This document shows positions 1 to 58,205 of a stretch of DNA of 64,000 nt, piece after piece (the stretch's first letter is position 1; every line of letters starts with the position of its first letter). The notes below the pieces were generated by a model, which did not search any database, was not told the origin of the DNA, and saw nothing but the letters and a program-made list of their open reading frames with translations. The translations under genes were made by a program, and so were the position numbers. Origin of the DNA: Nitrosopumilus sp. (GTDB taxonomy: Archaea; Thermoproteota; Nitrososphaeria; Nitrososphaerales; Nitrosopumilaceae); contig OZ240211.1 in assembly GCA_965197525.1 (NCBI GenBank), forward strand, positions 480,001 to 544,000. The letters run 5' to 3'.

Positions 1-602
1 TGTATTGTGTTCTCCTTTATGGATAACAGTTTGTTTGTCTTGTAGACTGTCACCTCTTTCTCGTTCCCACACGTCACATTTCTTAGGTTTCTGTCTATTC
101 CCACTTGATTGGTGCACTCTATCTCTTGTACTGTTTTTGAAACACAAAGACTGATGTTCAGAGCAGTCAATGAAAACGAGCGCACCGTCAAGGCGGGATC
201 AGATAGGATTTTTTGGGTGTGATCGTTGAGTAAAATGTTGATTGGGTTATGTTTCTTGTATGAGATTGTTAATAGTGCACCGCTGTGTTGTATACCGTAA
301 CAGTTTGTCATAAAGGGATTTTTGAGTATTGGGTCTCTTATTCTGACACCTCGTTTGATTGATTGTTTTCTGTTTGATAACATGCCTGCAGCTCGTGATA
401 TTGCATTTAGTTTGTATGAAGACAGGATGTCATAATTACGTAATTCATGATAACATAACATGGACAACCTCTTCATATTGTGAGTGTCTTCTTTCAATCC
501 TGTCTTGATGCAATGATTGACCATCTTTGTGAATATAGCCATCATATCCATTAGATCAGAGTTTGGCGTATATTTCTGTGATATTGACTTTATCGCTTTC
601 AA
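1..602 (-). CDS. tnpB: TnpB-family RNA-guided nuclease, N-terminal 200 codons (truncated by window edge)
   Basis: Manual translation from TTG at 602: MKAIKSISQKYTPNSDL...VGIDRNLRNVTCG. Open to the edge, near-identical to 48445..49638, RuvC-I Asp present. Not in the ORF track. Confidence 0.9.
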   Translation of the reverse strand, partial: MKAIKSISQKYTPNSDLMDMMAIFTKMVNHCIKTGLKEDTHNMKRLSMLCYHELRNYDILSSYKLNAISRAAGMLSNRKQSIKRGVRIRDPILKNPFMTNCYGIQHSGALLTISYKKHNPINILLNDHTQKILSDPALTVRSFSLTALNISLCVSKTVQEIECTNQVGIDRNLRNVTCGNEKEVTVYKTNKLLSIKENTI

Positions 603-674
603 CGAATATCTTACGGTTTAGAGGTTTATACAATTTAGGGATTAACAGATAACCCTCGATAACTTCACAGAACC
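1..674 (-). mobile_element. TIR-bounded tnpB element E1 (left end present; runs off window start)
   Basis: Minus-strand end GGTTCTGTGAAGTTATCG at 674 followed by tnpB. Closely matches 48374-48445 and is the exact reverse complement of the outer 18 bp of the E5 right TIR. Confidence 0.85.
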
Positions 675-8800: not shown

Positions 8801-11800
8801 GCAGAGACTGTCACAAAGTACTGGCTGCCAGAACCGGATATGGAGGTTACAGGATTGGGGACATCGGGGGTATCACCATAATTAATTGTGAGTGTCCAGC
8901 TGTTCAGAACGCCGTCATCTGCAGATGGATAGTCGTCGTTGATCTGTAGCGTCCATGTTCCTGATATTGAGGCGCCGTTAAAGTTCGGTGTGTATGTAGC
9001 TATGATATCGTCTGAACTACCGCCTGAACGATTGTGTAACGTTTTGGTTGTACCGTCGGGGGCAACCAAATCTACCTTTAGATCACTAATGTATGTATGA
9101 GTAATGTTTAGGTCAACTGAAACTGATGCAGCATTTCCAGAATTAGACACTGATATGGTATCAACAACGTCTTGATCACCTGCTATGGCAGTTGATGGTG
9201 AGTTGGTCTGAGTGAACTGGCCAGTACCAGTACCTGGGTCGGGACCGCCCGTGCTATCAGAAGACAGAACAAAGTCAGACTGTGTCACACCGGTCACTGC
9301 TTCGCTAAAGGTTACCTCGTAGACTAGTGTCTGGCTGTCAGTAGTTGCAGCAACAGGATTGTATCTCTCAATTGATGTGAGTGTTGGTGCTGTGGTATCA
9401 GCAGGTACTGTGTTGACCGTGTAGGTGTGGTCTACTCCGGTGGTGGCAGTATCAGTTAGAGGATTGTCTGCCGAATCCTCGATGCCGTGGTTTTGTACAA
9501 GATCAAGGTTGTATGTGCCGTCACTTGATGCAGAGACTGTTACAAAGTACTGGCTGCCAGAACCGGATATGGAAGTTATAGCATTAGCGGCAGTACCCGT
9601 ACTAGCGGAAGACAGAACAAAGTCAGACTGTGTCACGCCGGTTACATCTTCGCTAAAGGTTACCTCGTAGACTAGTGTCTGGGCGTCAGTAGTTGCGGCA
9701 GCAGGATTGTATCTCTCAATTGATGTGAGTGTTGGTGCAGTGGTATCAGCAGGTACCGTGTTGACCGTGTAGGTGTGGTCTACTCCGGTGGTGGCAGTAT
9801 CAGTTAGAGGGTTATCTGCCAAATCCTCGATGCCGTGGTTTTGTACAAGATCAAGGTTGTATGTGCCGTCCTGTGTGGCCAAAACCGTCACTTGGTACGT
9901 GTCGCCAGAACCTGAGATCGATGTTACAGGGTTTGATGTACCACTACTACTACTACTGCCACTATCAGGATTGATCGTAAGCGTCCAGCTGTTCAGGGTA
10001 CCGTCGTCGGCGGTGGCATAGTTGTCGTTTATCTGTAGCGTCCAGATACCTGCAATTGAAACACCGGCAAAGTCGGGTGTGTATGTCTGGTCTATGTCAT
10101 CGGCGCTGCCTCCAGAGCGGTTGTGGACGGTCTTGATGGTTCCATCAGGTGCAATAAGATCTATCTTGAGGTCGCCTTTGTACGTGTGAGAGACGTCCAC
10201 GGCGACAGAGACTGACGTAACAGTACCGGAATCGGTAACTGTGATGGTATCTGTTATGGTGTTGGCTGCAGTTATGGCAATGGCAGGAGAACGTGTCTGT
10301 GTGAACTGGGCAGAGCTTGATCCGCCCGTGCTATCAGAAGACAGGGCAAAGTCAGTCTTGTCCACTCCGGTTACATCCTCGCTGAAGATCACCTTGTAGG
10401 TCAGCGTCTGGCTGTCGGTGTTTTCTGTAGCTGGATTGTACCGCTCAATTGATGATAGTGTTGGTGCAGTGGTGTCAGCAGGTACCGTGTTGACAGTATA
10501 TGTCTGGTCTACTCCGGTGGTGGCAGTATCAGTTAGAGGGTTATCTGCCAAATCCTCGATGCCGTGGTTTTGTACAAGATCAAGGTTGTATGTGCCGTCA
10601 CTTGACGCAGAGACCGTTACAAAGTACTGGCTGCCAGAACCGGATATGGAGGTTACAGAATTAGCGGCAGTACCCGTGCTATCAGAAGACAGAACAAAGT
10701 CAGACTGTGTCACACCGGTTACATCCTCGCTAAAGGTTACCTTGTAGATTAGCGTCTGGTTGTCGGTGTTCTGGTCTGTGGGACTGTATCTTTCAATTGA
10801 CGTGACCGTCGGGGCAATCGTGTCAACAGTGTAGGTGTGGTCGGTTCCAGTTGTTGGGGCGGTGTCAACCAGAGGGTTGCTTGATTCGTCTGTGATGCCG
10901 TGCCCCGATGACACCAGATCAAGGTTGTAGGTGCCGTCCTGCGTCGCAGAGACTGTCACGTTGTATATATAGCCGGAGCCTGTCAGACCTGTTATGCTGC
11001 CTGCCCCTGTACTTCCAGGGGACAGGGCAAAGTCGGCTGAATGCACGCCAGTCACATTCTCGCTGAAAGTCACTCGGTAGATTAGCGTCTGACTAGAAGT
11101 TGTTGTACCTGACGGGCTGAACCGCTCTATCGACGAGATCGTGGGGGCGGTGGTGTCTGCAGGAATGGTGCTGACCGTGTAGGTGTGGTCGACCCCGGTG
11201 GAGGTGGTGTCAACCAGAGGGTTGCTTGATTCGTCTGTGATGCCGTGCCCCGATGACACCAGATCAAGGTTGTAGGTGCCGTCCTGCGTCGCAGAGACTG
11301 TCACGTTGTATATATAGCCGGAGCCTGTCAGACCTGTTATGCTGCCTGCCCCGGTACTTCCAGGGGACAGGGCAAAGTCGGCTGAATGCACGCCAGTCAC
11401 ATTCTCGCTGAAAGTCACTCGGTAGATTAGCGTCTGACTAGAAGTTGTTGTACCTGACGGGCTGAACCGCTCTATCGACGAGATCGTGGGGGCGGTGGTG
11501 TCTGCAGGAATGGTGCTGACCGTGTAGGTGTGGTCGACCCCGGTGGAGGTGGTGTCAACCAGAGGGTTGCTTGATTCGTCTGTGATGCCGTGCCCCGATG
11601 ACACCAGATCAAGGTTGTAGGTGCCGTCCTGCGTCGCAGAGACTGTCACGTTGTATATATAGCCGGAGCCTGTCAGACCTGTTATGCTGCCTGCCCCGGT
11701 ACTTCCAGGGGACAGGGCAAAGTCGGCTGAATGCACGCCAGTCACATTCTCGCTGAAAGTCACTCGGTAGATTAGCGTCTGACTAGAAGTTGTTGTACCT

Positions 11801-14800
11801 GACGGGCTGAACCGCTCTATCGACGAGATCGTGGGGGCGGTGGTGTCTGCAGGAATGGTGCTGACCGTGTAGGTGTGGTCGACCCCGGTGGAGGTGGTGT
11901 CAACCAGAGGGTTGCTTGATTCGCTGTGATGCCGTGCCCCGATGACACCAGATCAAGGTTGTAGGTGCCGTCCTGCGTCGCAGAGACTGTCACGTTGTAT
12001 ATATAGCCGGAGCCTGTCAGACCTGTTATGCTGCCTGCCCCGGTACTTCCAGGGGACAGGGCAAAGTCGGCTGAATGCACGCCAGTCACATTCTCGCTGA
12101 AAGTCACTCGGTAGATTAGCGTCTGACTAGAAGTTGTTGTACCTGACGGGCTGAACCGCTCTATCGACGAGATCGTGGGGGCGGTGGTGTCTGCAGGAAT
12201 GGTGCTGACCGTGTAGGTGTGGTCGACCCCGGTGGAGGTGGTGTCAACCAGAGGGTTGCTTGATTCGTCTGTGATGCCGTGCCCCGATGACACCAGATCA
12301 AGGTTGTAGGTGCCGTCCTGCGTCGCAGAGACTGTCACGTTGTATATATAGCCGGAGCCTGTCAGACCTGTTATGCTGCCTGCCCCGGTACTTCCAGGGG
12401 ACAGGGCAAAGTCGGCTGAATGCACGCCAGTCACATTCTCGCTGAAAGTCACTCGGTAGATTAGCGTCTGGCTGTCGGTGTTTTCTGATGTCGGATCGTG
12501 TCGTTCTATTGACGTGACTGTCGGGGAGGTGGTGTCAATACCTGTCACAGTCACGTTGTAGATGCGGTAATTGGAGGTACCAAAGTCTCCAGTAGAGGTT
12601 ATGTTGACCGTGTAACCGGGCTTGTCTGGTGATACTATCATGTTCAGGACGGAGCTGTCTGTGATATTAAACGAGTCAAAATCTTCTCCGTCTCCTATGT
12701 TGTATTTGGGGTTCTGCCTACCAAGCACCAAATTCTGCGCCGACATGTGCCCTACTACGCCGGGTGTGTTGTCGACATGTATCGTGGTGTTGTTCAGCAC
12801 AATGTACCAGTTGCCCAGATTTTGCCTGAATGCTGAGGCGCCATTGAACATGGAGCCCATGGATTTCACCGAGGAGACGTCCCAATCGGAAAGGTCGGAG
12901 TTGAAGGAGGAGGCGCCTTCGAACATTCTATACATGTTCTTCACATTGGAGACGTCCCAAGAGGAGATGTTGCCGTTGAAAGAGGAGGCGAGCATGAACA
13001 TGCCGCCCATGGATTTCACCGAGGAGACGTCCCAATCGGAAAGGTCGGAGTTGAAGGAGGAGGCTCCTAAAAACATATTAGACATTGCTCCTACGTTGGA
13101 GACGTCCCAAGAGGAGATGTTGCCGTTGAAAGAGGAGGCTTTAAACATGGCGCCCATGTGCCTCGCCGAGGAGACGTTCCAGGAGGAGATGTTGCCGTTG
13201 AAAGAGGAGGCGCCGTCGAACATTGCAGCCATGTTGACTACGTTTGAGACGTCCCAATCGGAAAGGTCGGAGTTGAAGGAGGAGGCATCATGGAACATGG
13301 CAATCATGGTGTCCACATTGGAGACGTCCCAGGAGGAGAGGTCGGAGTTGAAGGAGGAGGCGCCGCTGAACATGTCGATCATGGTGTCCACATTGGAGAC
13401 GTCCCAGGAGGAGAGGTCGGAGTTGAAGGAGGAGGCATCATGGAACATGTCACTCATGTTATCCACATTGGAGACGTCCCAGGAGGAGATGTTGCCGTTG
13501 AAAGAGGAGGCACCGCGGAACATGTCACTCATGTTATCCACATTGGAGACGTCCCAGGAGGAGATGTTGCCGTTGAAAGAGGAGGCACCGCGGAACATGT
13601 CACTCATGTTATCCACATTGGAGACGTCCCAGGAGGAGAGGTCGGAGTTGAAGGAGGAGGCACCGCGGAACATGTCACTCATGTTATCCACATTGGAGAC
13701 ATCCCAGGAGGAGAGGTCGGAGTTGAAGGAGGAGGCATCATGGAACATCCGATCCATGTTGGTTACATACGATACGTCCCAGTCGGAGAGGTCTGCATCA
13801 AAGGAGGAGGCGCCGCGGAACATTTGGTGCATGCGGCCCACATTGGAGACGTTCCAGGAGGAGAGGTCGGAGTTGAAGGAGGAGGCATCATGGAACATGA
13901 CATTCATGCCATACACATTGGAGACGTCCCAGGAGGAGAGGTCGGAGTTGAAGGAGGAGGCATCTAAGAACATGCCACCCATGAATCTCACAGAGGAGAC
14001 GTCCCAGGAGGAGAGGTCGCCATCAAAGGAGGAGGCACCATGGAACATACCATTCATGTATTCCACGCTGGAGACGTCCCAGGAGGAGAGGTCGGAGTTG
14101 AAGGAGGAGGCATCCTTGAATATTCCGTGCATGTTAGTCACAGACGAGACGTTCCAGTCAGAGAGGTCGGAGTTGAAGGAGGAGGCACCATGGAACATCC
14201 AGAGCATGTTATCCACATGGGAGACATTCCAGTCAGAGAGGTCGGAGTTGAAGGAGGAGGCACCATAAAACATGCGGTCGATGGTGTCCACATTGGAGAC
14301 GTTCCAGGAGGAGAGGTCGGAGTTGAAGGAGGAGGCGGCGAAGAACATCATGCTCATGTCGGTTACGCTGGAGACATCCCAGGAGGAGAGGTCGGAGTTG
14401 AAGGGAGTGACGGCTAACATATGGGACATGTTAGTCACGCTGGAGACATCCCAGGAGGAGAGGTCGGAGTTGAAGGAGGAGGCGTACATGAACATGTACG
14501 ACATGTCGGTGACAGATGCAAGGTCTGGCGTGTCGCTTGCATTGGAGACCATGTTCGCCGCGTTGCTAAACGCTCTAGACATTGACTCCCACTTTATATC
14601 CCCCCACTGCTCTATTGACTGTAGCTTCTCCGCGTTGTTCCTGTCTTGATACAGATTGATTCGCGTAAAGTTGCCAGATATCGAAACGGTGTAGGTTCCG
14701 GCATCGTCATAGATGTGCATCTGGTCACCGGTGACGTTGGCAGACACGGTTCCATCGCCCCAGTCGACCGTGTAGGCACCCGAGGCGCCGCCTCCAACCG

Positions 14801-17800
14801 GGATAGTTATGACCTCGTTTGCACTAGTAGTCTGCCATGTGGTGACAAAGGGCGCGTTACCTGTGTCCAGTATTGTGACCTCCACGGTATCGTCAGAAGA
14901 CGTGACACCGTCGTGCACAGTCAGGGTCAAGGTGACAGTCGTGTCAGAATGGACGCCGGGTGCCTCAAACCAAGTGGAAGGCGACGACGGGTCGTCAAGC
15001 GTTATGGCCACGGAACCGTCATGCGACCACTCGTACGTCAGCGAGTCCCCTTGGTCGGCATCTGATGCCGTGCCGGAGAGGCTAACAATCAAGCCCTCTG
15101 TTATGTCTTGGTTTACGCCGGCATCAACTATCGGGGGGTTGTTTATGACGACCTCGACCGTTCTGGAGTTGTTTGCGCCAAAGCCGCCAGTCGAGGTGAT
15201 GTTTACTGCATATGTGCGGCTTTCTGGCAGGCCACTGCCTGCATTTAGCACCAGTGTGGAGCCGTCTGTCTCAAAATAGCCCGAGTCTCCGCCGATTCCC
15301 ATGCCGTATGACGGGTTCTGGCCGTCGAGGTACGCGTTCTGCGCAGCAATACTGCCCACCGCTATGGTCGCATTACCTGCTCTGGCCGGCGTGTCATCTA
15401 GCACTATGTACCACGTCCCCAGATTCTGTGCAAACGAGTCGGCACCGTCGAACATGCCTGACATGTCAGTCACAGACGAGACGTTCCAGTCAGATAGGTC
15501 GGAGTTGAAGGAGGAGGCGCCTGAGAACATGCCTGACATGTCAGTCACAGACGAGACGTTCCAGTCAGATAGGTCGGAGTTGAAGGAGGAGGCGCCTGAG
15601 AACATGCCTGACATGTCAGTCACAGACGAGACGTTCCAGTCAGATAGGTCGGAGTTGAAGGAGGAGGCGCCTGAGAACATCGAGATCATGTAGGTAACGC
15701 CGGAAAGATCAGGCGAATCCGTTGCACTGTATGTCATGTTTGAGGCACCATTGAACGCAGACTCCATGGACTGCCACCGGGTGTCCCCCCACTGCACTAT
15801 TGAGTGCAATTTGGCCGCGTTGTTTGCATCGTCGCCCAGATTGATTCTCGTAAAGTCGCCGGATATCGAAACAGCGTGGGTTCCGGCACTGTCATAGGCG
15901 TGCGTCTGGTCACCGGCGACGTTGGCAGACACGGTTCCGTCGCCCCATTCCACCGAGTATGTGTCTGCCGCCCCGCCAGCAGGTATGATTATGGACTCGT
16001 TCTGCGCGATGGTGTTCCACACCATGACAAAAGTGTCATCACGGGAGGAAAACGGCAGTGTGCTGGCCAGGGCGTAGTTTTGTTCGGAGCGTCGAGGCGT
16101 GTCGATGTCTGTTCCCGTCACCGCTACCGTGCACGTGCCTGCCTCTGCAGGCACAAATACCGCAAACTCGTTGGACTGGTATGCCGACTGTGCAGATATC
16201 GTGTTCATTCCCGGGCAGTCGACGGTAAAGCCTAGGTCGGCAAAGTAATAGTCCCCGCCGGAGGAGCGGTAGCCATCATAGAACGGGTCGGCAGTCCACG
16301 ACAGTATCACCTTTACCGGGTTTTCGGTGTCGTGCACCTCAAACTGGTAGGCGTCCGCGTCAGAATTAGAGTGCAGGCTACCCTCTACAAGATGTCTGCC
16401 AGAGGCGCCGGTAACGTAATCAAGCGTCCTGCCCGCGTCAAGTATTCCAAAACCTACGTTATTTATTATTCCAAGTGAGTCAGCGTTGTTTGCCGTGTTC
16501 CAGTCTGTCGGTTGTCTTGCGTGGGAGCAGTTGTCTGTGGGGTGGTTCTCTTCATACTGCACCGATGTGCACGGCACAGGTCCCGTCCAGTTGGCCCCGA
16601 GAAGTACTGCCGCCTTGACGGTAGCCGGTTCCATGTCCCTTTCCTGCAGTGCCAGGGCAACGACTGCTGTTACTGCAGGGGCTGAAAAACTTGTCCCAGA
16701 GTTGGGTGCAGTGGTGCTGTTTGCCACAAACGAGGGTATATCTAACTTGTATGCAGGGGCCACCACCTCGGGCTTGAGTATCGGGTGGATGGTGCCACCT
16801 ACATTGTGGCTGGCAGGCCCCCTGCTTGATAGTATGTACATGCCGACATCATCCGGGTTGCGGTCGTCTATCCCGCCAACCGTGATGACGTTGTGTGCGC
16901 ATGCCAGCTCGCTGACGGACTTGTAGACAGGTACCACGGCATGACCGTTATGGATGGCGCCGTCGTTTCCGGCAGATATGACAACAGGCATTCCCAAATC
17001 CACTGCCTCTCCTGTGAGCAGTTGGGGTGTGGTGTCAAAGTTAACCTCGTGGCACCTTCCAGCACTGTAGCTCAGGTTTGACACATCCGCACCCATCTCA
17101 AGGAGCCATTCAAATGCATGCGAGCCGCTAGCAACGTTCGGAGAAGTACCACCACCGTGCCGCTTGATTCCGGCATCCAGAATGTCAACCCCGGGGGCGA
17201 TCCCGTTGTTGTCTGCAAGTCCGGATCCGGCAATGACCATTGCCACGCGCGTTCCATGCGAAGTCTGCAGGTTCCCTATGTCAGGTGCAGTTACGCCACT
17301 AGCCTGCGCGGGACTGCACCTGTGATCGGTGCACAGGACGCGGCCGATTACGCTGTCGTTTATCCAGTTAGGATGGTTTATGCCAGAATCCACCACGCCT
17401 ACTGTCACGCCAGAGCCTTCCACTGTTGTCCCGTCCGGCCTGCGCAAGTCGTCTGGAGTAGCCCCTATGGTCAGGCGCATCTCGTCTATGGTTGGGGTCA
17501 TCTGCGCCTGACCGTCGCCCATGCGGTACACCTGGCCGTGCCCGGATACCTCTAGGATGCGGTTTACCGGAACCGACGCGGTGACAAAGGAGAGAAGATC
17601 GGCGGCCTTGATGTCCCTAGCTCCAATATCCTTCAGTATCTTGACTACCGCGTCTTTGTTTGTCTCTGAGAAGTCGGTGCCGTCACGATCGTACTTGTTG
17701 ACGGTTATTATCACGTCATGGTGTGTCGTCGGGCTTTGCAGGTTTTCGTCTTGCGTCTGCTTCGTCAGTTTTTGCGCCTTACGTTCCGACTGAGGGGCAA

Positions 17801-19200: not shown

Positions 19201-19291
19201 ATGAACACCAGAGATTATGGATAATCGATTATAATATATGTGTATTACACTTTTTAATAACATATGTGTAAACAATAAAACAATTTATGAG

Positions 19292-20367
19292 AAAAAGTCT
19301 TTGCAATTTTCAAAAACACTAGAAACACTTATAGCTTGAAACACTTATAGCTTGAAATATTTATCACCCATAGTGGAAAACCAGAATGTGGCATTAATGT
19401 ATGTATATAAGAGGGAATTAAACCCAAAAGCAAAAGAACGAATGCTTTGCAGTGTTAAATGTCGTAGAGGAAGGTGAAACGATTTCAACAATCGCACAAC
19501 TGTTTTACAAATCCTACAACACAATTAAAAATTAGGTTATGCGATTTAAAGAATTTGGAGTTGCAGGATTGTATGAGAAACCAAGATCCGGACGTCCGCC
19601 AAAAATAGCAAATCATAAGATTACAGAATTTTTTACAAATGTTAAAAACGGCATTTTTCCAAAGCAGTTTGTACATAAAATAAAAAAAGATATAGGAGTA
19701 AAATACACCGAATCTGGAATACGTGACATATTGTGTCGTCATAACTTTACTCCAAAGGTACCCGGATTCCACACACAAAAACAAGGCATCTACTGAACAG
19801 ATAGAAGAGTGGCAAAAATCCCTGAAATGGTGGATTTCATGCGTAAAACGGGACGGTTTTGAGCTGTATGTACAGGATGAGTCAATATTGATGCACGACT
19901 ATGTCACAAAGCGCGGTCCATGGTAGCCGGTGGGTCAAAAAATACTCCGAGTTTATTTTGGAGACATCGGAGACGTGTAATTTATGGTGCAATATCAGAC
20001 TCGTATCAATATTTTTTACAGAAAAAAAAAATCAACGGTCCGACGTTTCTCAAATTTGTCAAAAAACTATTGGAACTATGACAAGGTAGCCATTGTAATG
20101 GATGCAGCACCCAGCATAAAACAAAGAAGTTTAAAAAATTTGTAAAAGCAAACAGTTCTAGACTGCGAATAATGTACTTGCCTACAGGATGTCCTGAATT
20201 TAATGCAATTGAAGAATGTTGGCATCAGTTAAAGATTCAACCTTTCATGTATGAACACCATGAACATGTTAGTGACCGTGCACGAGCCGCAATGATATAT
20301 CTAAGAACCGCTACATTCAATCAGAATATTGAACAGTATATGTTCAGAAAAGCAATTGCAAAGACTT
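19292..20367 (+). mobile_element. IS630-family element with a multiply frameshifted transposase
   Basis: IRs AAGTCTTTGCAATT (19295-19308) and AATTGCAAAGACTT (20354-20367). Fragments 19539..19796, 19723..19926 (QDES) and 20172..20369 (PEFNAIEECW). Confidence 0.88.
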
Positions 20368-23824: not shown

Positions 23825-23850
23825 GGTTCTGTCAGGTTATCGAGATCTAA
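23825..23850 (+). mobile_element. Orphan TIR end of the tnpB element family (E2)
   Basis: GGTTCTGTCAGGTTATCGAGATCTAA vs E4 left end GGTTCTGTTGGGTTATCGAGATCTAA (24/26). No partner end found. Confidence 0.7.
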
Positions 23851-23869
23851 TGTATTAACTCAAAAATTG

Positions 23870-24010
23870 GTAACCGTGTAGTTTTTTGAAATCCATGACT
23901 ACAATAAGGAAATTTGCGCTCAAACTTACATCTCTCATAAAACAAATAGTAATGATTGGTTGATATATTGTGTGTAGATCCTAGTTTACTTCAAAAAACT
24001 ATATAGTTAC
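23870..24010. mobile_element. 141-bp MITE-like segment with 21-bp imperfect IRs
   Basis: GTAACCGTGTAGTTTTTTGAA (23870-23890) vs reverse complement of 23990-24010, GTAACTATATAGTTTTTTGAA (18/21). Confidence 0.5.
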
Positions 24011-32899: not shown

Positions 32900-33158
32900 G
32901 GTTCTGTAACATCTTCGAGACCCTTAGTGATGTTATCGCTGGCCTAAATATACCATTCAAACTATCCTCTAGGTTTAGGGATAGTCGAGATGACATAGAT
33001 GAAGCGAAGTCTGGCATTTTTGAGCCAGCGATGTTGGAATCTTGCAGATCAGTAATCTAGATAGTCGATATGTCAAAGTCGAGTGATAGAGAGAAAACAA
33101 TTTGTTAATAATACAACAAAATTTCTTTGTTGATAGGTGTCTATAACCAGACAGAACC
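32900..33158 (+). mobile_element. MITE-like deletion derivative of the tnpB element (E3, 259 bp)
   Basis: Ends GGTTCTGT...ACAGAACC. The interior is homologous to the tnpB 3' end from the RuvC-III codons (GATGTTATCGCT) through GATATGTCAAAGTC. Confidence 0.85.
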
Positions 33159-36418: not shown

Positions 36419-36798
36419 GGGTTCTGTTGGGTTATCGAGATCTAAAACATAGAAATAAATACTTTTAATCATTACCATAATCATTGAACAGCACGAACAC
36501 GCAATATCCAGGATGCGGAAAGAAACTCCAAGAGGATATTATGCAACAACATCATAAATTATCGTGTACTAATTGTGGATTGTTCATTGATATGAACGCA
36601 TCTCACAAGCTGTCCCCTAGGTTTAGGGATAGTAGAGATGACATACATGAAGCGCAGTCTGGCACTTTTGAGTCAGCAATGTCGGAACCCAGCACACCGT
36701 CGGTAATCCGAATAGTCGATATGTCAAAGTCAGGTTATATGGAGAGGAACTTTGTTAATACACAACAAATTTCAGGTCTCGATAACCCAACAGAACCC
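36419..36798 (+). mobile_element. MITE-like deletion derivative of the tnpB element (E4, 380 bp)
   Basis: Perfect 22-bp TIRs GGGTTCTGTTGGGTTATCGAGA (36419-36440 and 36777-36798). The interior is the decayed tnpB zinc finger and 3' end. Confidence 0.92.
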
Positions 36799-43736: not shown

Positions 43737-45290
43737 CTATATCAGAAACAAAAATACCGAGGCAGGTATAATTACGTAATCAGTTTTAGATTCCAAATCG
43801 AGTTTTGACAAAACAATCCCGGTTTTTTTCACATCATTACGAAAGCTTGTTAATCCAGATAATTCCTTGGCGTTAATTTTTTGTCTAAACTTTACTTCGA
43901 TTGGAATTTCAATATCTCCAACTGAAAGCACGAAATCTACTTCCTTGTTGTTTTTACTCTTCCAGTAAAAGACATGGTTATGGTATTGAAAAATATGCTT
44001 TTTTGTACTCAGAGCAAAAGCTAATCTGATTAGGTGGTCGGCTACTATGCCTTCCACCATCTTTCCCTTATTTGCCTCGTCTTGTACGTACTGTAAGCTA
44101 AGATCAAAACTGTTCATTTGATCTGCCCATCCATTAAAAATATGGAGTAAAAATGGATCTCGGAAATAAAACTTCCGATCATTTTGGATTCTAGGCATCT
44201 TGTTTTTGGTACCGTATAGATACACGATTGATAAGACAAATAGATCATCTAATGTGTATGCATAGTCTGCCACAGTGTTTGGACTACCTATTGCAGATTC
44301 ACGGGAGAGATTGGTCCAAGAGGTATGGCTAGTCAAACCATTAATTATTGTTCTTCCAAATTGCCCAAGTAATGTTTCATTTTTAGATTGGCGACTCCAT
44401 TCGCCGGTAATGCCATTAAGATATTCATAGTAGATATTTTCGTCTAATATGCCGGTCGTGATCTTTTTATTAATTATGTAAGGAGTTCCTCCAGTGAGCA
44501 TATATTCATTTAACAAATCATTTAATTCATTTTGGTACGCATTAATTTTGTCAATATTTGAATGTATACTGAGATTAGTAAGATCCAGAAGAATGTTTTT
44601 CTTGTTTTGAGTACAATGTAATTTTAGATCTGAATGGAGTGATTTTAGTTCACTATTTTGCATGCAGACAAACTCAGAAAATTTCATAGGTAGCAAAATC
44701 TTATCATAGGTATCTGTTATTGTTCCCCTTCTGTTGGGTAGTCTTTCAGATGCATTCTTCAATCCAATTGCTTGTGAACCCGTAGCTACTAGTGTAACAT
44801 TGGGGATTTTATGCTGATCCACTAACCATTTGATACTTTTCTGCCAATCAATTACTGAAGTTGCTTCATCTAAAAAGATATACCGTCTATCGCTTTCTCG
44901 CAATTTTGGTGTTAATTTAAAATAAATTTCTATAACATCTACAATATCTTGTTTTGTATCATCAATGTCCAAAGAGTAATAGCATATCTGCCACGGCGAT
45001 ATTCCTTTGTCTAAAAAATCTTTGATCTGTAACATCAGTAATGTGGTTTTGCCAATTTGTCTAGGTCCACGTAGCGTATAGACTACGGTGTTAGTTGTAC
45101 TGAAATCCCACTTGATCTTATCTTTCAGTTCTGGAACATATTTCATCATAGATTTATGCCACTCGTAGATTTTTTGGTTATCGTTAATCTTGCTTGCATT
45201 CTTCCACCAAGGATTCATATCCCTTATTCGGTATTCGCTGACCATACAGGACATACTGAACGGTTCTTTATATATTACAGTCGGATCCAC
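43737..45290 (-). CDS. AAA ATPase, AAA_14 + DUF4143 family
   Basis: NPWW, GPRQIGKTT, IFLDE, TGGTP, KFYFRDP, EVDF and IPIEVK motifs. Start is GTG 45290 or ATG 45254. Confidence 0.88.
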   Translation of the reverse strand: MDPTVIYKEPFSMSCMVSEYRIRDMNPWWKNASKINDNQKIYEWHKSMMKYVPELKDKIKWDFSTTNTVVYTLRGPRQIGKTTLLMLQIKDFLDKGISPWQICYYSLDIDDTKQDIVDVIEIYFKLTPKLRESDRRYIFLDEATSVIDWQKSIKWLVDQHKIPNVTLVATGSQAIGLKNASERLPNRRGTITDTYDKILLPMKFSEFVCMQNSELKSLHSDLKLHCTQNKKNILLDLTNLSIHSNIDKINAYQNELNDLLNEYMLTGGTPYIINKKITTGILDENIYYEYLNGITGEWSRQSKNETLLGQFGRTIINGLTSHTSWTNLSRESAIGSPNTVADYAYTLDDLFVLSIVYLYGTKNKMPRIQNDRKFYFRDPFLLHIFNGWADQMNSFDLSLQYVQDEANKGKMVEGIVADHLIRLAFALSTKKHIFQYHNHVFYWKSKNNKEVDFVLSVGDIEIPIEVKFRQKINAKELSGLTSFRNDVKKTGIVLSKLDLESKTDYVIIPASVFLFLI

Positions 45291-45430
45291 TGAACGGTTC
45301 TTTATATATTACAGTCGGATCCACTGAACGGTTCTTTATATATTACAGTCGGATCCACTGAACGGTTCTTTATATATTACAGTCGGATCCACTGAACGGT
45401 TCTTTATATATTACAGTCGGATCCACTGAA
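45255..45430. repeat. Perfect 34-bp tandem repeat x5 (+6 bp)
   Basis: Unit ACTGAACGGTTCTTTATATATTACAGTCGGATCC with no spacers. Confidence 0.95.
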
Positions 45431-45574
45431 TTATTTGCCAACTTTATGATTTCCAAGGTTTGTGATCAGAGATCATGATATCTACCGTCTCGCTAGCCTG
45501 CACAAGTATTTGGCTATTCTGAATTTAATTACTTTGAGGGTAAATTGTAATTAGTAAAGAGATTACCAACTAGA

Positions 45575-48307: not shown

Positions 48308-48414
48308 ACGTATTCTTCAGAGAACCCCGATAATATCTGCTACGCTAGCAAGTAATACGGTTTTATTTGAAAAGGTTTTGTGAAGTTATCGGGAGTTATA
48401 TGTCATCCCTAAAA

Positions 48415-48422
48415 TGTATAAA
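48415..48422 (+). promoter_or_regulatory. Putative TATA box of tnpB
   Basis: TGTATAAA 22 nt before the TTG start, conserved in E1 (625-632, minus strand). Confidence 0.45.
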
Positions 48423-48444
48423 CCTCTGAACCGTAAGATATTCG

Positions 48445-49638
48445 TTGAGAGCGATAAAGTCAATATCACAGAAATATGCGCAAAACTCTGATCTAATGGA
48501 TATGATGGCTATATTCACAAAGATGGTCAATCATTGCATCAAGATAGGGTTGAAAGAAGACACTCACAATATGAAGAGGTTGTCCATGTTATGTTATCAT
48601 GAATTACGTAACTATGGCATTTTATCAACATACAAGATATGTGCAATATCAAGAGCTGCAGGCATATTATCAAACAGAAAACAATCAATCAAACGAGGTG
48701 TCAGAATAAGAGACCCAATAGTCAAAAATCCCTTTATGACAAACTGTTACGGCATAAAACACAACGGTGCACTACTAACAATCCCATACAAGAAACATAA
48801 CCCAATCAGCATTTTACTCAACGATCACACCCAAAAAATCCTATCTGATCCCGCCTTGACGGTGCGCTCGTTTTCATTGACTGCTCTCAACATCAGTCTT
48901 TGTGTTTCAAAAACAGTACAAGAGATAGAGTGCACCAAGAAGGTGGGAATAGACAGAAACCTAAGAAATGTGACGTGTGGGGACGAGGAAGAGGTGACAG
49001 TCTACAAGACAAACAAACTGTTATCCATAAAGGAGAACACAATACACGCCAGGGCAGGCTTCCACAGAAATGATCGCAGGAAGAAAAATCAGTTCTACAA
49101 GGAAAAACAGAGAAGACTGACTAACAGAGCAAAGCAGTACATCCACAGAATCTCAAAGGATATAGTAGACAACGCAGTCAAAAACAAGACTGCAATCGTC
49201 ATGGAAAACCTGAAAGGAATAAGAAAATTGTACCGAAAAGGAAACACTCAAGGTAACAAGTACAGACGTAGATTGAACGGGTGGCAATTCTACGAGTTAC
49301 AACGCCAAATAGAATACAAAGCCCAATGGGTCGGACTACCTCCAGTCGAGACAGTAGACCCAAGAAACACGAGCACGCAGTGTCCACAATGCGGAAAGAG
49401 ACTCCAAGAGGACATGCAACAACATCGTAAATTGTCGTGTAATAATTGCGGTTTGTTTATGGACAGGGACATCATCGCTGCCATGAACATATCACGCAAA
49501 CTGCCCCCTAGGTTTAGGGGTAGTAGAGGTGACATAGATGAAGCACAGTCCGGCACTTTTGAGCAGGCGATGACGGAACCCAGCACACCATTGGTAATCC
49601 GAATAGTCGATATGTCAAAGTCGAGTTATAGGGGTTAA
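48445..49638 (+). CDS. tnpB: TnpB-family RNA-guided nuclease, catalytically intact
   Basis: RuvC D (GIDRN), E (MENL) and D (DRDIIAAMNI). Zinc finger CPQCG...CNNCG. Confidence 0.93.
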   Translation: MRAIKSISQKYAQNSDLMDMMAIFTKMVNHCIKIGLKEDTHNMKRLSMLCYHELRNYGILSTYKICAISRAAGILSNRKQSIKRGVRIRDPIVKNPFMTNCYGIKHNGALLTIPYKKHNPISILLNDHTQKILSDPALTVRSFSLTALNISLCVSKTVQEIECTKKVGIDRNLRNVTCGDEEEVTVYKTNKLLSIKENTIHARAGFHRNDRRKKNQFYKEKQRRLTNRAKQYIHRISKDIVDNAVKNKTAIVMENLKGIRKLYRKGNTQGNKYRRRLNGWQFYELQRQIEYKAQWVGLPPVETVDPRNTSTQCPQCGKRLQEDMQQHRKLSCNNCGLFMDRDIIAAMNISRKLPPRFRGSRGDIDEAQSGTFEQAMTEPSTPLVIRIVDMSKSSYRG

Positions 49639-49660
49639 CTCCCGATAACTTCACAGAACC
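49505..49660 (+). ncRNA. Predicted omegaRNA region overlapping the tnpB 3' end
   Basis: A ~118-nt block (CCCTA-GGTT-TAGGG hairpin to GATATGTCAAAGTC) is conserved in E3, E4, E5 and E6. TnpB omegaRNAs are known to overlap the gene 3' end. Expression not shown. Confidence 0.5.
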
Positions 49661-49688
49661 AAAAGAATAGTAAAAAAGATGAAGATTA

Positions 49689-50804
49689 TTGGGAATTCCT
49701 GAAAAGATCAAAGCCATACAAGATGAAATGGCAAAGACGCAGATCAACAAGGCAACAGAGCACCACATAGGATTACTCAAAGCAAAGATTGCCAAGCTCA
49801 AAAGAGAACAAGAAGCAGATGCTGTCAAAAAATCAGGCATGAAGCAAGATGGATTTGATGTAAGGCGTAGCGGAGATGCGACAGTGGTATTCATAGGACT
49901 GCCAAGTGTCGGAAAATCTACACTGTTAAACAAGATGACTGGTGCTAACTCAACCATAGGGGCTTTCCAATTTACAACACTGACTGTTGTTCCGGGGATG
50001 ATGGAGTACAGGGGCGCAAAGATCCAAGTATTGGATCTGCCAGGGATCATAAAAGGTGCATCAACAGGCAAAGGATTAGGAAAGAGAATATTATCAGTTG
50101 CAAGATCAGCTGACCTAGTACTGTTGATGTTAGATGTATTTCAACCATATCACGAGGACGTGTTAATAAATGAATTAGGCAATATTGGAATAAGATTAAA
50201 CCGCCTACCACCGAACATCACAATTGAAAAAGCATCAATGGGAGGAATTGCAGTTGCGCAACAAGTAAAATTAACAAAGATCACAGAGAAACATCTCAAA
50301 GACATATTACATCTGTACGGATTGGTTAGCGCACGCGTGGTAATAAGAGAAGATATAACATCTGAACAATTGGCAGATCATATTGCAGGAAATATTAGTT
50401 ATTCAAAAGCTATCACGATACTAAACAAGATTGATCTAGTGGATAAAGTATTTCTCAATAATTTAAAAACAAAGATAAAATCAGACGTAGTAGAGGTGTC
50501 TGCAAATGCAGATATCAACATTGAACTACTCAAAGAAAAGATATATCAGAAATTAAAATTTATTAGAATATATATGAGACCCAAGGGCGGAGAGACTGAT
50601 TTTAAAGAACCGTTAATTGCAAGAGAAGGTGACACAGTTGAAGAAATTTGTAACAAACTTCATCGCAGGTTAAGAAGAGAGTTCAGATACGGTTTAGTTT
50701 GGGGCAAGAGTGTAAAGTTTGGAGGACAGCGAGTGGGATTAAGTCACATTTTAGTCGATGAGGATGTGCTCACCATAATAAAAAAGCGTGGAAGTACTGT
50801 ATAA
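49689..50804 (+). CDS. DRG/Rbg family Obg-like GTPase with TGS domain
   Basis: GLPSVGKST, FQFTTL, DLPG and NKID motifs; C-terminal TGS domain. Confidence 0.93.
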   Translation: MGIPEKIKAIQDEMAKTQINKATEHHIGLLKAKIAKLKREQEADAVKKSGMKQDGFDVRRSGDATVVFIGLPSVGKSTLLNKMTGANSTIGAFQFTTLTVVPGMMEYRGAKIQVLDLPGIIKGASTGKGLGKRILSVARSADLVLLMLDVFQPYHEDVLINELGNIGIRLNRLPPNITIEKASMGGIAVAQQVKLTKITEKHLKDILHLYGLVSARVVIREDITSEQLADHIAGNISYSKAITILNKIDLVDKVFLNNLKTKIKSDVVEVSANADINIELLKEKIYQKLKFIRIYMRPKGGETDFKEPLIAREGDTVEEICNKLHRRLRREFRYGLVWGKSVKFGGQRVGLSHILVDEDVLTIIKKRGSTV

Positions 50805-51009
50805 CTAGAAAAAATCAAGCGTATGCTGTGCTGCGTGTGCCTGTATGACACCATAACGAGAGTCTTATTCATAATTGAAAGCTCCATGTGTAGAAAAATT
50901 GTAGAAAAAATACACGATTAAAGGAGAAATTTACTTTATAATTTATAATCAAATTGTGTAAACTTTTTTAGTGTAGTAATTCAAAAATGGGAAAAAGCTC
51001 AACATTGCA

Positions 51010-51570
51010 ATGGCTATAAGAAAAACTTCTACAGCTAAACGTAGAACAGCTAAGAAAACTACTGCAAGAAAGACATCTACAAAGAAAGCAGCTCCTAGAC
51101 GAAGTGCAGCAAAGAAAGCAGCTCCTAGACGAAGTGCAGCAAAGAAAGCAGCTCCTAGACGAAGTGCAGCAAAGAAAGCAGCTCCTAGACGAAGTGCAGC
51201 AAAGAAAGCAGCTCCTAGACGAAGTGCAGCAAAGAAAGCAGCTCCTAGACGAAGTGCAGCAAAGAAAGCAGCTCCTAGACGAAGTGCAGCAAAGAAAGCA
51301 GCTCCTAGACGAAGTGCAGCAAAGAAAGCAGCTCCTAGACGAAGTGCAGCAAAGAAAGCAGCTCCTAGACGAAGTGCAGCAAAGAAAGCAGCTCCTAGAC
51401 GAAGTGCAGCAAAGAAAGCAGCTCCTAGACGAAGTGCAGCAAAGAAAGCAGCTCCTAGACGAAGTGCAGCAAAGAAAGCAGCTCCTAGACGAAGTGCAGC
51501 AAAGAAAGCAGCTCCTAGACGAAGTGCAGCAAAGAAAGCAGCTCCTAGACGAAGTGCAAAGAGACGATAA
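51010..51570 (+). CDS. Histone H1-like basic repeat protein
   Basis: 186 aa: K/R/A/T-rich N-terminus plus 16 x KKAAPRRS(AA). No acidic residues. Confidence 0.8.
   Translation: MAIRKTSTAKRRTAKKTTARKTSTKKAAPRRSAAKKAAPRRSAAKKAAPRRSAAKKAAPRRSAAKKAAPRRSAAKKAAPRRSAAKKAAPRRSAAKKAAPRRSAAKKAAPRRSAAKKAAPRRSAAKKAAPRRSAAKKAAPRRSAAKKAAPRRSAAKKAAPRRSAAKKAAPRRSAAKKAAPRRSAKRR
51081..51558 (+). repeat. Perfect 30-bp tandem repeat x15.9
   Basis: Unit AAAGAAAGCAGCTCCTAGACGAAGTGCAGC, identical in all copies. Confidence 0.95.
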
Positions 51571-51799
51571 ATTCGTTAACACAATTAACAATCATCGGAC
51601 AAACGACGGATTGTTTTCTATTTTTCTAAATGACTCAGTATTAACTATAAAGTATTAAACTCGATTTTAGTTTTTTAAGATTTGTAATCATAAAATTTTA
51701 AAAAATTATTAATTATCAAACATATGACAGAATCAATAATTATAGAGATATTGCATATTGCATATTTTTGATGAATAGTTTATTGTTTGAAGAAGCACG

Positions 51800-53479
51800 T
51801 CAATAAAGATAACTCATTAATTTAATCTCTTCTTCAGTGCTAATGATGTTTTTAGCTGTTAGAACTTCTAACAGATCCTTAAAAAGTGCTTTTTGCTCAC
51901 TAGACATTCCACCGGTAGGACCCTTATCACCTGGTAATCCCGGAGGACCTCGTGGGCCTGGAGGACCTAATGGGCCTTGCTCACCTGGAGGACCTTGCTC
52001 ACCTAGAGGGCCTAATGGGCCTTTTGAACCTCGCTCTCCTTGAGGACCCTGAATTCCTTGTGGGCCTTGTGGGCCTTTCTCACCTGCAGGACCGGTAGGA
52101 CCTCGCTCTCCTTGGGAACCTTGTGGGCCTTGTGGGCCTTTGGCGCCTACAGGACCTAGTGGGCCGGTAGAGCCTCGCTCTCCAATCTGTCCGACACGTC
52201 CCTTCTCACCTCGCTCACCCTGTATTCCTGGAACGCCTGTCATTCCTTTCTCACCTGGAGGACCTTGTGGGCCTTGTGGACCAGTCTCACCTTGTGGACC
52301 ATCAACGCCCTTGTTTCCTTTCTCACCGGGGGGACCAGTTGGACCTGCTAGTCCTTTTGGACCTTTGTCGCCTTGTGGACCCGTAACACCTGTTAATCCT
52401 TTTGAGCCTGTGGCGCCCTGCGGGCCTTGTAGACCCTTCTCACCTGGAGAACCTTTGTCACCAGTTGGGCCTTTCTCACCCGTAGCACCTTGTGGGCCAA
52501 GTAAACCTTGTGGACCTTTGTCGCCTTTGATTCCAACAGGACCTGTTAATCCTTTTGAACCCACAGGACCGGGGGAACCTTGCGGACCTTTGTCGCCCGG
52601 AGAACCGAGTTGGCCTGTAGGGCCTTTTGAACCCTTATCCCCCATATGACCATGAGGACCTTTGTCACCTATAGGGCCTTTGTCACCAGTTGGACCCTTG
52701 GTGCCCACAGGACCTGCAGGACCTTGCAGTCCTTTGTCACCCTGAATTCCAGGAAAGCCAGTTGGGCCCTTTTCACCAGCAGGTCCAGGTGGACCGGTAA
52801 GTCCTTTGTCACCAGGCATGCCCTGTGGGCCTTTGTCACCCTTATCGCCAATAACCCCGCGTAAACCAAGAGGGCCTTTGTCGCCAAGAGGACCTTTGTC
52901 ACCTGGAGGACCACGCTCACCTTGCACACCTGAAGGTCCAGATGGACCTTTGTCACCTTTAGAACCCATACGTCCAGAGGATCCAGTAGAAACGGCAATA
53001 TCAGATGAGCCTTCAGGCGTGGATGGTTTTTGTCGTCCAGATGAGGGTTTGGTAATAGTAGAAGAGGAGGAGGAGGAAGAGGAAGATGCAGGAGGAACAA
53101 TAGACATGCCAGATTTAACATCATGTGTAGCAGAAGCATCTGCATCCTTGCTGGATTTATCAGTTTTTAGAGCCTTCTTTTTCAAAGAGACCTCAAATAC
53201 AGTATGTGCAGAAGAGAACGAATCATATGCGACAATCCAAATTTTATCTAGTGCGTCAATTGACGGAGGCAGTGGATTTAGTGCAGACCCCAGCGTTTCA
53301 AAAAACACGCCATCGCGTACGCGTAGATGAAAGTGGTCTTTCCAGAGATATTTGAACTGTTTTGACATTATGGAATCATCAGTAGGCTTGGATGTTGTGA
53401 TAGCAATTTCAGTCTCATAGACTCCAGGCTGGGTTATTGGCGCAGGTCCGCTTACCTCTAACTTTGATGCAGATGACAC
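51800..53479 (-). CDS. Collagen triple-helix repeat protein
   Basis: About 119 uninterrupted Gly-X-Y triplets, a small N-terminal domain, a Ser-rich linker and a short helical C-terminus. No signal peptide. Confidence 0.9.
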
Positions 53480-56778: not shown

Positions 56779-58129
56779 GGTTCTGTCTAATCATAGTGAG
56801 ATAAAATCTAAACTCCGAAAAAAAGTTTTGTTGTAATATTAACAAAGTGTCTTTTTCCCATCAGTTGACTTTGACATATCGACTATTTGGATTACCGGTG
56901 TACAGGGTTCCAACATCGCTAACTCAAAAACATTAGACTTCGCTTCACTTATGCCAACTCTACTATCCCTAAACCTAGGGGACAGTTTGTGAGGTATATT
57001 TATAGCAGCAATAACGTCTCTGTCCATAAACAACCCACAATTATTGCACGACTTTTTACGATGGTGTTGCAAGTCCTCTTGGAGTTTCTTTCCGCATCTT
57101 GGACATTGCGAGCTCGTGTTTTTTGGGTCTACAAATTTTACTGGAAGCCCTACCCATTGGGCTTTGTATTGTATTTGTCTTTGAAATTCAAAGAATTGCC
57201 ATCCGTTTAATCTACGTCTGTACTTGTTACCTTGACCATTGCCTTTCTTGTATAATTTTCTTATTCCTTTTAGATCTTCTAGAATAATCATGGTTTTGTT
57301 TTTGACTGCTCGTTCTACAATATCTTTTGAGATTCTATGTATGTATTGTTTGGTTCTTTGAGACATTCTTCTCTGCTTTATCTTCCAGAACTGATCTTTC
57401 TTTCTACGGTCATTTCTATGAAATCCAGCTCTAGCGTGTATTGTATTTTCTTTAATTGATAGTAATTTATTTGTCTTGTATACTATAACTTTTTTCTCAT
57501 TCCCACAAGTGACATTTCTAAGATTTCTGTCTAATTCCTACCGGTACATTAGTACATTCTATTTCTTCAACTTTTTTTGAAACACAAAAACTGATACTTT
57601 TTTCATTCATAATAAATGATCTTATATTTAAATCAGGATTAGATAGTATTTTTTGAGTGTGATCATTTAATAATATGTTTATGGGGTTTCTATTTTTGTA
57701 TGGTATTGTCATTAAACTACCATTATGTTTGATACCATAACAATTTGTAATAAATAACTTTTTTACAACTAGGTCTCTTACTGTAACACCACGCTTTATT
57801 GACTGTTTTCTGTTAGATAGTATGCCAACAGCACGTGATATTGCATTTATTTTATATGAACCTAAAACATCATAGTCTCTAAATTCATGATAACAAAGTG
57901 GAGACAACTGTTTCAAACTATGTACGTCTTCTCTTAACCCTATTCTAATGGAACGATTTACCATTTTTATGAATATCTCCATCAACTCTTTTAGATCAGA
58001 ATTTGGTGTATGTTTCTGTGTTATTGATTTTAATGCCTTCATACTACTAGAACATGTTTTATTTTTTTAATAAAGGTACTTTTTTTGAAATTATTTTTAT
58101 TCTTTGCCACTTGATAATCCAATAAAACC
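56779..58129 (-). mobile_element. Diverged TIR-bounded tnpB element E6 (1,351 bp)
   Basis: Right end GGTTCTGTCTAATC at 56779. Left end GGTTTTATTGGATTATCAAG at 58129 (16/20 to the E4 TIR). Confidence 0.8.
56839..58042 (-). pseudogene. tnpB: Frameshifted tnpB
   Basis: ORFs 57518..58042 and 56839..57366 join if one extra T (GGAATTAGAC vs GGAATAGAC) is removed just before the RuvC-I Asp codon. Confidence 0.88.
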
Positions 58130-58205
58130 ATTATTTGTTATTGTAAATCTAGATAAAAATTTATCTCCCTATAAATAGACAGAACACTGTATAGGTAAGT
58201 ATTAA

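Follow-up and report, generated by a model that had tools for sequence, protein, structure and literature searches.

For transposons with scarless excision (IS605, IS607), the selfish role of TnpB is understood; its role in DDE transposons that duplicate their target is treated as open in recent reviews. The locus described here raises this question in compact form: what moves a unit that carries tnpB alone between IS6-like inverted ends, and what might TnpB do for it? The unit lies at positions 48374–49660 of the window, by which we mean the whole stretch of 64,000 nucleotides that was analyzed. The host is a sponge-associated Nitrosopumilus whose genome is a single 2.21-Mb contig (GC 39.6%, 99% complete), with pieces at 99% identity or more in sponge metatranscriptome libraries. 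The unit is probably a non-autonomous member of an IS6-like DDE family, with TnpB and an omegaRNA-like scaffold running into the right end as its sole cargo.

The element spans 1,287 bp, and its 25-bp inverted ends match at 24 of 25 positions. The left end (48374–48398) reads GGTTTTGTGAAGTTATCGGGAGTTA, the right end (49636–49660) is the reverse complement of GGTTCTGTGAAGTTATCGGGAGTTA, and the mismatch is a C at the fifth base of the right 25-mer; a 24/25 match between ends was absent from all shuffles of the window. The sole gene between both ends is tnpB, whose stop codon TAA (49636–49638) forms the first three bases of the right end. An earlier note on this DNA had described just such a tnpB-only unit, with the stop codon at the inner edge of the right end, and the sequence confirms it. 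The parts of the element and its immediate flanks are as follows.

48370–48373, plus strand: left copy of the 4-bp duplication AAAA, from empty-site comparison
48374–48398, plus strand: left terminal inverted repeat, with its outer edge at the empty-site junction
48445–49638, plus strand: tnpB, 397 aa, TTG start, RuvC D/E/D and zinc ribbon intact
49636–49660, minus strand: right terminal inverted repeat, whose inner part can pair with the last tnpB codons
49661–49664, plus strand: right copy of AAAA, from empty-site comparison, and start of the presumed guide-template flank

The open reading frame at 48445–49638 is a TnpB, that is, a predicted RNA-guided nuclease. It scored 125.4 bits against the NCBIfam model guided_TnpB (cut-off 100) and matched Pfam Cas12f1-like_TNB (PF07282) at 7e-21; it contains the RuvC motifs GIDRN, MENL, and DRDIIAAMNI together with a CxxC..CxxC zinc ribbon, and the nearest solved structures, by sequence, are those of Cas12f and TnpB. 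Across the genome, the open TnpB frame is kept in 25 of the 27 full end-paired copies. Between subfamilies, dS was 0.7–1.1 and dN/dS about 0.1, a ratio that points to purifying selection and thus to a protein that stayed under selection while the element spread.

We then asked where the mobile unit begins and ends. The element occupies a 91-bp divergent intergenic region between a HAD-type hydrolase gene and a DRG-type GTPase gene. In at least five genomes of the same genus (other species), the flanks are contiguous and joined at the outer edges of the inverted ends: the empty sites read ...ACGGTTTTATTTGAAAAGAAT..., while the source genome reads ...TTTGAAAA, the 1,287-bp element, and AAAAGAAT.... 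Likewise, an 11.6-kb contig from a public DNA run, with flanks about 95% identical, joins 48369 to 49661. Since the flanks are joined exactly where the ends stop, the whole end-to-end unit of 1,287 bp is the insert, and not an inner IS605-type unit. The comparison of empty and filled sites, which the earlier note had proposed for mapping the boundaries, thus placed them at the outer end edges. It also revealed a target duplication: the empty sites read ...TTATTTGAAAAGAAT..., and AAAA (4 bp) is duplicated in the filled allele. The earlier view that this copy lacks a duplication was therefore wrong, and cointegration need not be invoked for the lack of an 8-bp duplication here. A perfect 8-bp duplication was sought for this copy and was absent, the empty sites showing 4 bp; AAAA may be what remained of an original 8-bp duplication after a later loss of 4 bp. 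As a separate observation on the locus, the start codon of the DRG-type GTPase gene lies 29 bp from the element (49661–49689), inside the 91-bp divergent promoter region, and its expression may now rely on read-through out of the element.

The element belongs to a family of considerable size. Its own subfamily has 17 copies in the genome (92–99% identity), and we found about 20 full-length copies of diverged subfamilies (76–85% identity) and about 12 short derivatives of 208–655 bp, all of them, full or short, bounded by ends starting GGTTCTGT. Diverged TnpBs are paired with matching diverged ends, an association that the earlier note had suggested and that is seen across copies. The further traces it had listed within the window (674, 23825, 32900/33158, 36419/36798, and 56779/58129) are all real, except that the sixth trace ends at 58186 and not at 58129:

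1–674, minus strand: another member of the same subfamily (95% identity), truncated at the window edge; in the full genome sequence, the 8-bp duplication CTATCAAC flanks it, with TTG before it
23825–23870, plus strand: isolated right end of a short-derivative subfamily, read on the opposite strand
32900–33158, plus strand: short derivative (259 bp), hybrid ends, RNA core retained; on the left TTG and 8 nt, no duplication
36420–36797, plus strand: 378-bp short derivative with both ends and the 3' RNA region, without TnpB
56779–58186, minus strand: diverged copy, 72–80% identical, tnpB frameshifted; a 1-nt shift gives the duplication CCTATACA, with TTA before it

To obtain a genome-wide view, we catalogued 46 end pairs, of which 37 are TnpB-type elements that could be oriented by tnpB or by an RNA remnant. 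A perfect 8-bp target duplication flanks 21 of these 37, and the family thus makes 8-bp target duplications. It is also polymorphic between close strains. Among the 15 duplication-less copies of this genome, no reciprocal exchange of flanks was found. In the Nitrosopumilus MAG OZ245003.1, two TnpB copies (L052 and L055) have exchanged flanks: the 8-mer tagaaact stands on the left of one copy and on the right of the other, and ttatgtta shows the reverse arrangement. Recombination between copies can therefore erase duplications. The swap is consistent with such recombination and does not by itself imply a replicative cointegrate pathway. Separately, a second TnpB-only family of about seven copies was seen, with one member at 545581–547217 of the genome, 1.6 kb past the end of the window; its inverted ends are different, 13 bp long (GGGAATTAYATAC), and its 8-bp duplications are often AAT-rich.

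Prokaryotic tnpB usually travels with Y1 or serine transposases, and this general rule is the one argument for reading the locus as an IS200/IS605- or IS607-type tnpB element nested in an unrelated MITE, with the inner unit alone being mobile. We consider this reading hardly tenable. The empty sites, whose junctions coincide exactly with the outer edges of the inverted repeats, refute it; 8-bp duplications flank those ends in 21 copies, and diverged TnpBs have diverged ends to match. Moreover, the 99%-complete genome contains no match to the Y1 transposase (PF01797) and none to the serine recombinase (PF00239). The element accordingly differs from IS200/IS605, including its IS1341 group, in having 25-bp inverted ends, 8-bp duplications in 21 copies, and no Y1 match, and from IS607 in having inverted ends and duplications without a serine recombinase. 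It resembles IS1341-group elements in that tnpB is the only gene and that a predicted guide-RNA scaffold overlaps its 3' end; those elements, in contrast, have asymmetric hairpin ends, no duplication, and a Y1 TnpA.

The genome does encode candidate DDE partners. Seven ORFs scored above the cut-off for Pfam DDE_Tnp_IS240, one of them in a 1,970-bp element at genome positions 746475–748444, whose ends start GGTTCTGTGTAATCTTCG and match perfectly over 29 bp and which is flanked by the 8-bp duplication CTATTGTG. Over its first 18 nt, this element has the same sequence as the ends of one TnpB subfamily. Its transposase (genome 746963–748096) is a 378-aa protein with an extra cysteine-rich N-terminal region, which scored 42 bits against DDE_Tnp_IS240 (cut-off 27) and whose best NCBIfam match was transpos_IS6, at 102.8 bits and thus below the cut-off of 125. 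When the protein was used in a tblastn search of plasmids, 389 of 389 matches were annotated as IS6 family, at 26–29% identity. Two further DDE elements of the same genome, at 699962–703151 (3.2 kb) and 583727–588872 (5.1 kb), have GGTTCTGTTAAC-type ends; they belong to two of four other IS240-type ORFs, all four of which lacked clear ends in a narrower local-alignment search.

In the genus, the transposase was found in 31 of 81 genomes, our own included, and several of the elements encoding it have GGTTCTGT ends, 8-bp duplications, and cargo. Restriction-modification cargo was observed in elements of other Nitrosopumilus genomes (L135:5229–9070, L137:4891–8063, L138:5207–8433, and L140:1256–6056) and in 699962–703151 and 583727–588872 of our own; the cargo is either an N6/N4 methylase paired with a CfrBI-type endonuclease, or other methylases, or HsdM/HsdS of a type I system. 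For nearly every TnpB end subtype, a DDE element with a near-identical end exists somewhere in the genus. For the end of subfamily A, the closest DDE-element match is 20 nt long and lies in another species, and no DDE element of its own genome matches that end past the first 9 nt. The search for a DDE transposase with matching ends, as called for in the earlier note, thus yielded IS6-like elements with GGTTCTGT ends and 8-bp duplications in both genome and genus. Together with the empty sites, these elements support the idea of a non-autonomous, DDE-mobilized TnpB carrier of the TIR type. Mobilization in trans by a transposase encoded in another element is well supported by these sequence comparisons, and a transposase encoded elsewhere most likely moves the 1,287-bp element.

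How closely does this partner resemble IS6? Like IS26, IS257, and ISS1 (Varani et al. 2021, PMC7986276), the elements have ends starting GGTTCTGT, 8-bp duplications, and a transposase that matches IS6 models best. ISS1S, a bona fide IS6 member, ends in GGTTCTGTTGCAAAGTTT, of which 12 nt are common to one TnpB subfamily, and the ends of one TnpB subfamily, GGTTCTGTTGCA..., are short inverted ends of the IS6 type (GGTTCTG). Duplications of 8 bp, as in IS6, flank 21 of the 37 TnpB-type elements as well as DDE elements, the copy at 48374–49660 having 4 bp. The two differ in size and content. IS6 members measure 700–890 bp with the transposase alone, and the review lists one passenger case, two MITEs, and no TnpB; here, in contrast, the DDE elements span 1.97–5.1 kb, cargo consists of restriction-modification genes or TnpB, and the transposase, of about 380 aa, has its cysteine-rich N-terminus and scores below the cut-off.

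We next examined the 3' end of tnpB, since its last ~140 nt are far more conserved than the remainder of the gene.

49493–49634, plus strand: structured RNA (omegaRNA-like scaffold, predicted) inside the tnpB 3' end, with an invariant 30-nt core at 49593–49622

The 30-nt core is present in 50 copies in the genome, 28 of them exact, though synonymous sites elsewhere are near saturation, and every short derivative has retained the 3' RNA region while lacking the 5' portion of tnpB. To assess folding, we aligned 24 diverse copies and used as controls the same alignment with the pairing partners slid. Five helices emerged, in which 97.7% of cells were paired, compared to 27–37% in the slid controls, and compensatory changes were seen at 10 of 32 pairs, compared to 1–2 in the controls. 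A covariance model built on this fold found the tnpB 3' end, on the sense strand, in Nitrososphaerales and Bathyarchaeia relatives (E 6e-8 to 0.02) whose TnpB proteins are 38–47% identical; it gave no match in bacterial TnpB loci or in DDE-cargo elements, and an Rfam search of the element returned no relevant match. Covariation thus indicates that the RNA is structured, and it is retained even where derivatives have lost TnpB; we predict that it serves as an omegaRNA-like scaffold. An omegaRNA scaffold normally abuts the guide. Here, in contrast, the stretch between core and tip, right end included, varies from 36 to 102 nt, which is unusual; in subfamily A, base pairing between this stretch and the final tnpB codons is possible. 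In two sponge metatranscriptome runs, contigs of the family had more depth over the 3' part, with zero depth on the flanks of 48374–49660; these contigs represent a multi-copy family, DNA runs gave a similar though weaker excess, and DNA carry-over is possible.

A guide read from the flank would call for a recognition motif, and the flanks of the oriented elements contain one on a single side. At positions -11 to -9 from the left end, directly 5' of the left duplication, T, T, and a purine occur in 28, 34, and 35 of 37 elements, respectively. The full motif TTA/TTG (TTR) is found there in 25/37 (26 after a 1-nt re-reading of 56779–58186), compared to 4.4% in the genome and 5.6% at neighboring flank positions (binomial p ~1e-25). 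At the mirror position on the right side, it was seen in 6/37 (16%). DDE-cargo elements without the RNA had TTR at 5 of 23 ends (22%), two distal and three proximal to the transposase gene, a significantly lower frequency than on the left side of TnpB elements (Fisher p = 4e-4). The motif is thus one-sided, immediately 5' of the left duplication. The rule also held in 7 of 10 elements of another Nitrosopumilus genome, and one Bathyarchaeota copy with 42% protein identity has TTG and an 8-bp duplication. In the copy at 48374–49660, TTG abuts the duplicated AAAA and TTA occupies -11 to -9, so this copy satisfies either reading.

48363–48369, plus strand: candidate TAM positions, TTA at -11 to -9 and TTG at -7 to -5 from the left end

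The second TnpB family (~7 copies, 8-bp duplications) has no TTR-like motif beside its copies and is therefore uninformative as an independent test of the motif idea. A host-promoter reading of the flank was also considered and rejected: the AT-rich signal at -20 to -14 is too near the element to be a TATA box for transcription starting there, and is much weaker than TTR.

By analogy with known TnpB systems, the one-sided TTR would sit where the recognition motif of the nuclease is expected, and we favor, with some reserve, the view that it is the TAM. Cas12f nucleases recognize NTTR or TTTR PAMs, T-T-purine 5' of the target being required in that group; unlike in Cas12f systems, no CRISPR array is involved here, and the guide would come from the transposon flank. 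In the mechanism that we propose, the IS6-like transposase of another element would bind the GGTTCTGT ends and move the unit in trans. Transcription of tnpB would read out of the right end, and the guide would then consist of the duplicated 8 nt and the next flank bases. In an allele without the element, the guide-matching sequence would directly follow TTA/TTG as the TAM. TnpB could cut such empty alleles, after which recombination with a filled copy would put the insertion back or spread it further. Cutting would spare the filled site, as the left match is only 8 nt long and the right one is preceded by AACC. With empty alleles cut and filled sites spared, insertions beside the motif would be the ones retained. 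IS6 members are thought to move replicatively (PMC7986276); such movement would leave no empty donor site, and the need for homing would then be weaker.

The same motif can be accounted for without TnpB. A DDE-moved passenger might be flanked by TTA/TTG because of a target preference of its transposase or an asymmetric transpososome, an account that we consider unlikely, though not negligible. On the right of TnpB elements (6/37), as at RNA-less DDE-cargo ends (5/23), TTR does exceed the ~5% found nearby, and the flanks are AT-rich; part of the bias may therefore stem from the transposase or from AT-rich targets, and a weak intrinsic target bias of the transposase, at the 16–22% seen at other ends, is probably present as well. 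What this account leaves unexplained is orientation: in cargo elements, TTR falls on either side of the gene and at a third of the frequency, while in elements with TnpB or the RNA, it follows the orientation of the RNA, even in TnpB-less derivatives. The inverted ends are, moreover, identical over ~24 nt, which offers no obvious basis for an end-specific contact with the target.

TnpB could also act earlier, at insertion, if the protein, with or without its RNA, were bound at TTR and positioned an IS6-like transpososome whose 8-bp staggered cut fell beside the motif. The fixed distance between motif and end in ~70% of copies, very recent ones (98–99% identity) included, speaks for such assistance, as does the great strength that a post-insertion filter would need to produce this frequency. 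We still judge it very improbable, since the short derivatives without TnpB obey the same rule (though TnpB could act in trans) and no sign of contact between TnpB and the transposase was seen; we also know of no TnpB that takes part in choosing a transposon target. If it were true, each new insertion would be born with a working pair of TAM and guide, and the system would represent a minimal, guide-independent forerunner of CRISPR-associated transposons. Our preferred reading is still that a DDE transposase moves the unit in trans and that TnpB acts on empty alleles after insertion.

The element adds to a class that has already been published. In PNAS, Altae-Tran et al. (2023, PMC10691335) describe six DDE-associated TnpB branches (DDE-1 to DDE-6), all within inverted terminal repeats, and solo TnpBs within ends near-identical to those of transposase-bearing elements, which they propose to be "mobilized in trans"; ends in common with DDE-transposase-bearing elements are likewise found here. 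The novelty that the earlier note had claimed for a TIR-type TnpB carrier is therefore overstated. In the same account, the 3' end of TnpB lies less than 250 bp from the element end, and TnpB clusters above 30 copies are lacking, compared to ~50 RNA modules in this genome. The main text names IS630; it does not mention IS6, nor does it describe a one-sided motif beside a variable duplication. A 2026 review gives ISL2, IS630, and IS1031 as DDE partners of TnpB, and our literature searches for TnpB with Nitrosopumilus, Thaumarchaeota, or IS6 found no paper. Two features may thus be new, namely a partner of the IS6 type and the position of the candidate TAM immediately beyond a variable duplication. 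In eukaryotes, Fanzor is TnpB-type cargo of DDE TIR transposons, and the 5' duplication adjoins the target (PMC13565253); in that case, the duplication is fixed (TA, TTAA) and belongs to the TAM, whereas here it varies and the candidate TAM lies just outside it.

For the role of TnpB in target-duplicating transposons, the family offers a testable answer, namely that the target would begin with the duplicated 8 nt and that the TAM would lie just outside. It is large and young, with its RNA modules spread over 2.2 Mb and most TnpB genes intact, and the genus supplies natural controls in the form of IS6-like elements with restriction-modification cargo and without the RNA module. Its TnpB is, moreover, a compact archaeal protein for which a short TAM is predicted.

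Several other features of the window were observed. Positions 2900–15900 hold tandem repeats of great length (periods 726/729, 345, and 75 bp; identity up to 100%), which probably encode one or more giant repetitive surface proteins; this region is bracketed by an inverted repeat of ~370 bp (2457–2830 and 19287–19677, 88–92% identity, arms 16.5 kb apart). On the minus strand, 51800–53479 encodes a 559-aa protein with collagen triple-helix repeats (Pfam 1e-59), adjoined by a 30-bp tandem array of ~23 units (50945–51648). Finally, at 45221–45464, just 3' of the arginyl-tRNA synthetase gene, a 34-bp unit is repeated in six tandem copies, of which four are identical.
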